From a virus (taxonomy: Duplodnaviria; Heunggongvirae; Uroviricota; Caudoviricetes): a stretch of 15,900 nucleotides of DNA. This document shows positions 11,060-11,734 of the stretch, one piece after another. Both the position numbers and the translations under genes were made by a program. The DNA is taken from the IMG/VR virus record IMGVR_UViG_2695420863_000009; one strand, given 5' to 3'. Positions within the stretch are counted from its first letter, which is position 1. Every line of letters begins with the position of its first letter. Under the pieces are notes generated by a model, which saw only the letters and a list, made by a program, of their open reading frames with translations, was not told the DNA's origin and did no database searches.

Positions 11060-11734
11060 ATGAAAAACACTATCAGCGAACGTATTCGGAATCGTCGAAA
11101 AGACGTTGGATTAACCCAACAGCAGGTTGCGAAAGCAATCGGCATATCTCGTGTATCCGTAACAAAATGGGAAAATGGCTCTTCAAAACCTGACGGTGAG
11201 AATTTGTATCTACTGTCAAAATTGCTTTCCAAATCTCCTGAATGGATTCTTTATGGAAAGGACGGTCACGATAAAGCCGATGATCTGCGTCTGAATCAGT
11301 ACCCTTACATTAGTGACAACATCGCCCGGTTGCCCGTTTTAACGTGGGAACAGGCTGGTTATTGGGATATGAGTTGTCCAGTAACCGAGATTCCTGGTAT
11401 TAAGAATTGGGTTGATGTCATGACAAAAACCGCTGAAAACTCTTTTTTATTGCATGTTGAGGGAGATGCGATGACAAACTCTAACGGCCTCCCAACCATC
11501 CCCGACGGATCTACCGTGCTGATCACACCATGCTCAAGTAACATTAGAGAACTGGTGGGAAAAATAATCTTAATCCAATTGGAAGGAACGCCAAACGTAA
11601 CACTAAAAAAAGTTGCGATTGACGGACCAAACATCTATCTGTTGTCACTGAATCCGCTTTACAAACCCATCGAACTGAATGGTGGTTACACCATTAAAGG
11701 TAAAGTTTCACAAATACATCAATACTTAGACTGA
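11060..11734 (+). CDS. cI-like prophage repressor (XRE HTH + S24 LexA-like C-terminal domain)
   Basis: N-terminal HTH (LTQQQVAKAIGISRVSVTKWENG) and C-terminal S24-like domain (…HVEGDAM…TLKKV…). Start placed at 11060 so that O2 is outside the CDS; the track ORF starts at 11018. Followed by a terminator. Confidence 0.8.
   Translation: MKNTISERIRNRRKDVGLTQQQVAKAIGISRVSVTKWENGSSKPDGENLYLLSKLLSKSPEWILYGKDGHDKADDLRLNQYPYISDNIARLPVLTWEQAGYWDMSCPVTEIPGIKNWVDVMTKTAENSFLLHVEGDAMTNSNGLPTIPDGSTVLITPCSSNIRELVGKIILIQLEGTPNVTLKKVAIDGPNIYLLSLNPLYKPIELNGGYTIKGKVSQIHQYLD

Follow-up and report, generated by a model that had tools for sequence, protein, structure and literature searches.

The immunity repressor of a lambdoid prophage related to Qin is probably a natural non-cleavable ('ind-') repressor, which would uncouple this prophage from the SOS response. 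Its gene lies on the plus strand at 11060-11734 of the window, i.e. the whole stretch of 15,900 nucleotides that was analysed (IMG/VR record IMGVR_UViG_2695420863_000009), which represents the early region of the prophage. Qin is the cryptic prophage of Escherichia coli K-12 that carries dicB and dicF. The repressor has the C-terminal S24 peptidase domain of LexA and lambda cI, with an alanine, Ala151, in place of the nucleophilic serine, and by analogy with mutants of these two proteins it is predicted to be unable to cleave itself. Most E. coli copies of the gene carry the alanine allele; sister alleles keep the serine.

Architecture and active-site residues of the repressor

The gene and its functional positions are given in window coordinates; the residue numbers Ala151, Lys197 and Ala113-Gly114 are counted from the ATG at 11018.

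11060..11734, plus strand: coding sequence of the immunity repressor, 224 amino acids (aa); an ATG at 11018 in the same frame gives the 238-aa form of RefSeq
11084..11248, plus strand: HTH_3 domain (Pfam), residues 9-63 of the 224-aa form
11333..11707, plus strand: S24 (LexA/cI) C-terminal domain (Pfam PF00717), residues 92-216
11354..11359, plus strand: Ala113-Gly114, codons GCT GGT, counterpart of the scissile bond Ala111-Gly112 of lambda cI
11468..11470, plus strand: Ala151, codon GCG, at the position of the nucleophile Ser149 of lambda cI and Ser119 of LexA
11606..11608, plus strand: Lys197, codon AAA, counterpart of the general base Lys192 of lambda cI, 46 residues past Ala151

By Pfam, the N-terminal part of the protein is an HTH_3 domain (E 3.5e-17) and the C-terminal part a Peptidase_S24 domain (E 9.5e-17). 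The PF00717 match scores 61.2 bits against a cut-off of 23.3, spans profile positions 1-115 of 116 and places Ala151 on the serine position, which bears out the S24 domain that an earlier note, made from the sequence alone, had proposed from an alignment by eye. The nearest solved relative found by phmmer is the full-length lambda repressor (3bdn, E 4.4e-14), while the DNA-binding domain is nearer to P22 c2 (E about 1e-12) than to lambda cI. An AlphaFold model, built with 22 homologues, reached a mean predicted local distance difference test score (pLDDT) of 76.7, with the linker and residues 1-15 disordered; it served for fold assignment only. Its top PDB matches in Foldseek were 3bdn, the lambda C-terminal domain 1kca (template modelling score, TM, 0.80; root-mean-square deviation 2.0 Å) and LexA. 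The N-terminal domain of P22 c2 matched with a TM of 0.95. Family profile and fold match agree on the beta-fold C-terminal domain of the S24 peptidases, and the N-terminal helix-turn-helix (HTH) domain is of the Cro/C1 type found in lambdoid cI/C2-type repressors.

The active-site assignment is carried by three concordant alignments. In the phmmer alignment with 3bdn, 'llhvegdamtnsng' falls on 'fwlevegnsmtaptg' and sets the alanine on lambda Ser149; 'tlkkv' pairs with 'tfkkl', which holds Lys192, and 'eqagyw' with 'vqagmf', which holds Ala111-Gly112. When 126 family members and lambda cI are aligned in MAFFT, all three pairings recur, and the Pfam profile agrees with both alignments on Ala151 as the nucleophile position. 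The G-x-S-M motif of the family thus reads G-D-A-M with GCG at 11468-11470, a lysine follows in TLKKV within the usual distance of about 40-46 residues, and the Ala-Gly/Cys-Gly site of the linker is kept as Ala-Gly in EQAGYW; the earlier note had read all three motifs correctly. Lys197 is invariant in the homologue alignment A1, and the Ala-Gly site and the lysine are intact in every close allele examined. No alternative invariant serine was found in the C-terminal domain among the aligned homologues. An alternative Ser-Lys dyad is ruled out by this result and by the agreement of the three alignments. Because alanine occupies the position of lambda Ser149 and no other invariant serine is available, the repressor is, by its sequence, a non-peptidase homologue of the active S24 enzymes.

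The earlier note had numbered residues from the ATG at 11018; this annotated codon is probably not the true start. Translation probably begins at 11060, because homologues begin at the equivalent methionine, a putative operator occupies 11046-11059, and in the 238-aa form the pLDDT of residues 1-15 is below 50. Neither ATG is preceded by an obvious Shine-Dalgarno sequence, so that the repressor may be translated from a leaderless mRNA, as is the case for the lambda PRM transcript.

Frequency and history of the alanine codon

The repressor gene was found in 702 of the 5,426 complete E. coli genomes searched; in 679 copies the identity to it is 99% or higher. An exact 57-mer centred on the GCG codon occurs without mismatch in 681 of these genomes; the alanine form accounts for about 97% of the E. 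coli copies. Seven loci obtained whole all read GCG: those of E2855, ML35, JJ1887 (sequence type 131, ST131), an O6:H16 strain, USDA5905 (O55:H7), a chicken isolate and the window itself. The open reading frame (ORF) is intact in every sampled copy.

These counts leave practically no probability for an artefact, whether from sequencing, from assembly or from pseudogene decay in one strain. A single base separates GCG from a serine codon, and some carriers are degraded: the integrase gene of E2855 is frameshifted and its exonuclease gene is interrupted by an insertion sequence (IS). Against an artefact stand the intact ORFs, a C-terminal ratio of nonsynonymous to synonymous substitution rates (dN/dS) of about 0.05, and alanine codons in diverged alleles (GCG at 87% and GCA at 66% nucleotide identity). 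A sequencing error at 11468 is ruled out because 681 independent complete genomes share the 57-mer. The earlier note had named such an error and an intact alternative Ser-Lys dyad as the findings that would overturn its reading; both were looked for, and neither was found.

The alleles are listed here with their identity to the window and with the nucleophile codon.

Window, ML35, JJ1887 and others: at least 99% nucleotide identity to the window; GCG, Ala
O55:H7 CB9615 allele: 95.8% nucleotide identity; TCG, Ser
P0002 allele (E. coli): 86.6% nucleotide identity; GCG, Ala
O178:H19 allele: 84.2% nucleotide identity; TCA, Ser
P0003 allele: 87% protein identity; TCA, Ser
P0005 allele (Salmonella): 66% nucleotide identity; GCA, Ala
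P0006 allele: 65% protein identity; TCG, Ser

The CB9615-type serine allele was found in eight genomes. Its TCG codon is the natural counterpart, one base away, of the GCG in the window. The serine alleles at 96% (TCG) and 84% (TCA) nucleotide identity, both with cleavage site and lysine intact, match the earlier proposal of a point change on an otherwise cleavable scaffold. The comparison of orthologues, which had been suggested as a check, places serine in the more distant relatives and alanine in the window clade and in two diverged alleles. Homologues from Hamiltonella, Arsenophonus, Symbiopectobacterium and Erwinia read GDSM or GESM, except for one degenerate Arsenophonus sequence. Serine is taken as the ancestral state because the more distant homologues carry these motifs. 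In a neighbour-joining tree of the repressor alleles, computed without the nucleophile codon, alanine and serine alleles interleave, which requires at least three changes, all at the first codon base, whichever direction is assumed. The N-terminal and C-terminal halves give the same topology except for the placement of P0002. The differences between the CB9615 allele and the window cluster somewhat around the nucleophile codon, and short-patch recombination could contribute to the codon pattern.

The wider family, 126 sequences of 190-275 aa, comprises mostly HTH-S24 repressors and two members without an S24 domain. Serine is kept in 106 of them; alanine (7) and threonine (6) are the commonest residues among the other 20. 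The Ala-Gly site is gone as well from most of the distant members without the serine. The window clade retains it, as would be expected if the nucleophile was lost recently from a protein otherwise equipped for cleavage. Purifying selection on the C-terminal domain is strong. Its dN/dS is 0.05 for the window versus P0002 (both Ala, dS 0.72), 0.06 for the window versus CB9615 and 0.05-0.11 across the allele comparisons, values that average over branches with the state of the nucleophile codon not known; the linker is much less constrained.

The retained residues bear on the idea that the protein is still cleaved, either through another nucleophile (Thr153 or Ser155 in GDAMTNSNG) or in trans by LexA, UmuD or a homoimmune serine-type repressor. 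Ala-Gly and Lys197 are kept in all three alanine lineages, including Salmonella at 66% nucleotide identity, in contrast to the distant members without the serine, most of which have lost Ala-Gly too. Intermolecular cleavage of LexA and cI in vitro was reportedly described by Kim and Little in 1993. However, recent Ser-to-Ala changes explain the retention equally well, no other serine or threonine of the C-terminal domain is invariant, and Ser155 is proline in most homologues. Ser-to-Ala is moreover the standard cleavage-dead mutation of the S24 family, and trans-cleavage by S24 proteins is inefficient at physiological concentrations. Continued cleavage is therefore considered very unlikely.

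The GCG immunity module occurs in diverse prophages. It was found at three attachment sites (yccA, potC and ompW) and next to three replication modules, which consist of a 357-aa protein with DUF977, of an HTH protein with an IstB-like ATPase and DUF1627, and of DUF1376 with a P-like protein. The Q genes of the carriers differ, as do the head genes of ML35 and JJ1887, the two examined for these. Integrase and excisionase are intact in five of six sampled carriers, the exception being E2855 with its frameshifted integrase. The serine sister alleles occupy the same genomic context as the alanine allele.

Two further observations were made on the homologues. The nucleophile motif of P0021, a 221-aa repressor of Arsenophonus nasoniae, is degenerate, with PDDKTDN in place of GDSMTN; its Ala-Gly is gone and the KK motif is kept. 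Here the motif has truly decayed, whereas the window shows a clean exchange of Ser for Ala. The representative search also returned proteins of 700-4,162 aa (P0024, P0025, P0032, P0060 and others) with 8-30 tandem repressor-HTH matches, which appear to consist of many repeated Cro/C1-type HTH units.

Induction of the prophage and comparison with known repressors

In the classical mutants LexA S119A and lambda cI S149A, self-cleavage is lost through the change from serine to alanine. Ser-to-Ala mutants of LexA were also identified by entry title among the PDB matches of the model (1jhh, 6a2s and 8s7g). Without its nucleophile the window repressor would, like these mutants, not cleave itself with activated RecA. 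PR, with cro, the cII-like gene and the replication genes, would stay repressed during SOS, as would PL with ydfA, dicF, dicB and the exonuclease, xis and int genes, and the prophage would be uncoupled from DNA damage. Selection for dimerisation and cooperative operator binding would keep the S24 domain. The allele would be retained at the level of the host, through the survival of lysogens that DNA damage cannot kill; this is proposed because alanine dominates in genomes and recurs in diverged alleles, and the repressor type is absent from phage collections. Hosts become sensitised to DNA-damaging drugs by SOS-inducible prophages but not by non-inducible ones (PMC13320796). Residual escape would be independent of RecA, by stochastic flipping between cro and repressor, by an unrecognised or trans-acting antirepressor, or by recombination of the immunity module. 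About 1% spontaneous switching has been reported for the related DicA/DicC switch (PMC10448788).

Other induction routes were searched for. The window contains no perfect LexA box (CTGT-N8-ACAG); five sites with one mismatch compare with 4.8 expected by chance. No box was found in eight related loci either (L001, L004, L005, L009, L012 and L017-L019; about 230 kb of prophage and flanking chromosomal DNA). Among 19 ORFs of the window, ten scanned with Pfam and nine others with PHROGs, none matched the Ant, Rha, BRO, Tum/DinI-like or Rem families. Both marks of an SOS-controlled antirepressor system, a LexA box and a member of a recognised antirepressor family, are accordingly missing from the DNA and ORFs scanned. 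In Qin, the DicA antirepressor Rem is encoded between ydfU (DUF968) and hokD (PMC10448788). The window has a 92-aa ORF of unknown function (phrog_1212; 5194 to 4916, minus strand) at this position, between the DUF968 gene and hokD, and so have ML35, JJ1887 and other carriers. It was rejected as a Rem homologue because no similarity was detectable. In phage records, the repressor gene had no tblastn match above 60% identity (50,697 records) and no megablast match over the gene. Neighbouring prophage segments do occur, by megablast, in induced coliphages with other repressors. The lack of a LexA box and of an antirepressor in these searches, together with the absence from phage records, inclines towards a prophage that is not SOS-inducible in cis.

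A non-cleavable repressor could still be combined with regular induction through an antirepressor, encoded by a small ORF of the same or of a co-resident prophage. Pairs of this kind are common in enterobacterial prophages (PMC3121763, PMC10448788, PMC10432266), the complete-looking carriers at three attachment sites suggest continued mobility, and the nin region holds ORFs of no known function, including the one at the rem position. This alternative is considered possible but doubtful, as neither the window nor the related DNA has a LexA box, the scanned ORFs match no annotated antirepressor family, and the 92-aa ORF does not resemble Rem. The serine sister alleles in the same context also suggest a system built for self-cleavage.

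Several points weigh against a natural ind- repressor that cuts the prophage off from SOS. Non-cleavability is read by analogy with LexA S119A and cI S149A, and the dN/dS values are averages over branches of uncertain codon state. The alanine allele resides in prophages with intact integrase and excisionase, which over the stretches examined look complete, at three attachment sites and with three replication modules. A strictly locked element should not spread in this manner unless recombination moves the module. The carriers, mosaic and seemingly intact, speak against a plain dead end, and some route must be moving the module. Absence from phage collections is weak evidence, as the rarer serine alleles are absent from them too. 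Small ORFs of the nin region with unknown function may furthermore hide an unrecognised antirepressor.

An extended interpretation, regarded as improbable, treats the Ser/Ala codon as an evolutionary switch that is flipped recurrently, one T-to-G change producing a dominant SOS-proof module, with retention by the host and conditional, partner-dependent induction. The host would keep the module since dicB/dicF and the lysis genes stay silent during DNA damage. The alanine module would block the induction of homoimmune serine-type phages as well as superinfection by them. Scissile bond and lysine would be kept for removal of the repressor in trans, by an active S24 partner or an antirepressor, which would make induction dependent on a partner.

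The natural ind- repressor of the window, as preferred here, can be compared with several known systems. Lambda cI ind-/S149A and LexA S119A share its two-domain S24 architecture and the replacement of the same residue by the same alanine, with lysine and Ala-Gly intact. A common phenotype would be expected from this analogy, i.e. operator binding is kept and activated RecA is not perceived. Unlike in the laboratory mutants, the substitution in the window is natural; about 97% of the E. coli copies have it, it recurs in diverged alleles, and the HTH domain is nearer to P22 c2. Gifsy GfoR/GtgR, Qin DicA with Rem, N15 CB with AntC and 186 CI with Tum are known non-cleavable phage repressors (PMC3121763), and the window repressor is likewise predicted not to cleave itself. 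Qin has an alike neighbourhood, with cro/dicC-type and ydfA-dicF-dicB-ydfD genes. Most non-cleavable repressors under antirepressor control are short (about 150 aa) or unrelated and have no S24 domain (PMC3121763). The window repressor differs from the Gifsy, DicA, N15 and 186 systems in keeping the S24 scaffold, the cleavage site and the lysine, and in that no LexA module or known antirepressor was found with it.

The CI repressors of Shiga toxin (Stx) phages fall into clades I-VII, and all S24-type clades reportedly retain the serine needed for self-cleavage (Fagerlund et al., 2022, PMC8951638). They share the HTH and Peptidase_S24 domains, the setting in lambdoid E. coli prophages and the mosaic replication modules with the window repressor, a non-Stx type that has lost the serine. 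Among the cI proteins of linear plasmid-like phages, 210 of 271 were classified as 'non-autoproteolytic' for lack of the catalytic residues (Silpe et al., 2023, PMC10432266). The same criterion applies here; these phages belong to a different group and pair the repressor with identified antirepressor modules. Nothing specific was found in the literature on WP_000103686 or on a natural Ser-to-Ala allele of cI. Non-cleavable repressors are already known, and no new mechanism is revealed. Specific to this case are the single transversion on a full scaffold, the polymorphism with serine at 96% identity, and the status as majority allele in E. coli.

If the prediction is correct, a lambdoid prophage with an SOS-deaf master switch is present in about one in eight complete E. 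coli genomes, and the sampled ST131, O111 and O55:H7 strains would be among the carriers. The carrier prophages hold the cell-division inhibitors dicB/dicF, and in some strains the type III effector genes or remnants espK and an IS-interrupted nleB. The finding would then bear on predicting which prophages are mobilised by DNA-damaging antibiotics. One base change could 'ground' a prophage without visible gene decay, which tools that score intactness would miss. The natural pair of GCG and TCG at 96% identity offers a ready experiment on the fitness cost of SOS inducibility for host and phage.

Operators, neighbouring genes and prophage context

The control region around the repressor comprises the following elements.

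10998..11011, no strand assigned: putative operator, perfect palindrome GTAACAATAGTTAC, in the intergenic region of cro and repressor, OR-like
11046..11059, no strand assigned: putative operator GTAACATTGGTTAC, between cro and repressor, abutting the ATG at 11060
11809..11822, no strand assigned: putative operator GTAACTCTTGTTAC, OL-like, 75 bp past the stop codon and ahead of the leftward early operon of the ydfA/dicF/dicB type
11740..11763, plus strand: terminator-like stem-loop AACCCGCA/TGCGGGTT with T run, just past the stop codon of the repressor
10753..10968, minus strand: cro gene of the P22_Cro family (Pfam PF14549, E 2.8e-16; RefSeq 'Cro/CI family'), divergent from the repressor
10331..10756, minus strand: YdaT-family gene (Pfam PF06254) at the cII position, downstream of cro

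Neither the window nor the 49.6-kb ML35 locus has perfect matches to GTAAC-N4-GTTAC other than the three putative operators. Palindromes stand at the same offsets in every related locus that contains this DNA, and the first is identical even in Salmonella (66% nucleotide identity). The HTH domains of the window and CB9615 differ in few residues, Q35E and S44T. Since the serine and alanine alleles have predicted operator sites in common, they may be expected to share their immunity specificity. The divergent cro, the repeated predicted operators and the second operator region before the leftward operon are those of a lambdoid repressor, and as far as the sequence can tell, the protein still works as an immunity repressor. 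The repressor transcript seems to end at the stem-loop at 11740-11763, which folds with -15.4 kcal/mol (z = -4.07; no shuffled sequence out of 200 was as stable). A consensus scan for promoters between 10700 and 12200 gave none.

On the minus strand, from right to left, cro is followed by the YdaT-type gene at the cII position, the replication genes, the nin region and hokD/sok. The order continues with DUF968, RusA, Q, a CPBP protease, an AraC-type regulator and tRNA genes. The plus strand past the repressor carries ydfA-like genes and DicF. The small RNA (sRNA) DicF is encoded three times on this strand (12851-12902, 14785-14836 and 15644-15695; Rfam, 77 bits each). The module of ydfA-like gene, ORF and dicF is repeated, with 76-92% identity between 11979-13032 and 13225-14966 and 100% between 12782-13032 and 15575-15825; reference prophages have one such module. 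No colinear match to the 4.2-kb stretch 11735-15900 was found in the 5,426 complete E. coli genomes, the best span being about 2.5 kb. The repeat may be genuine, by tandem expansion or recombination, or may have arisen in assembly.

Further genes were noted on the minus strand. A 289-aa ORF with a C-terminal DUF551 (5983-6852) is intact in the window and present as fragments or pseudogenes in the annotation of ML35, E2855 and USDA5905. The sok antitoxin RNA adjoins hokD, and the regions with RNA genes are 270-786 and 5512-5686. Downstream of Q, the sRNA STnc100 (138 bits) and three tRNA genes were detected, the latter annotated as Arg, Arg and Ile in matching RefSeq records. Between Q and the tRNA genes, 815-1528 and 2150-2974 encode an AraC-type HTH protein (237 aa) and a CPBP/Rce1-like intramembrane protease (274 aa), respectively, which look like cargo without phage function.

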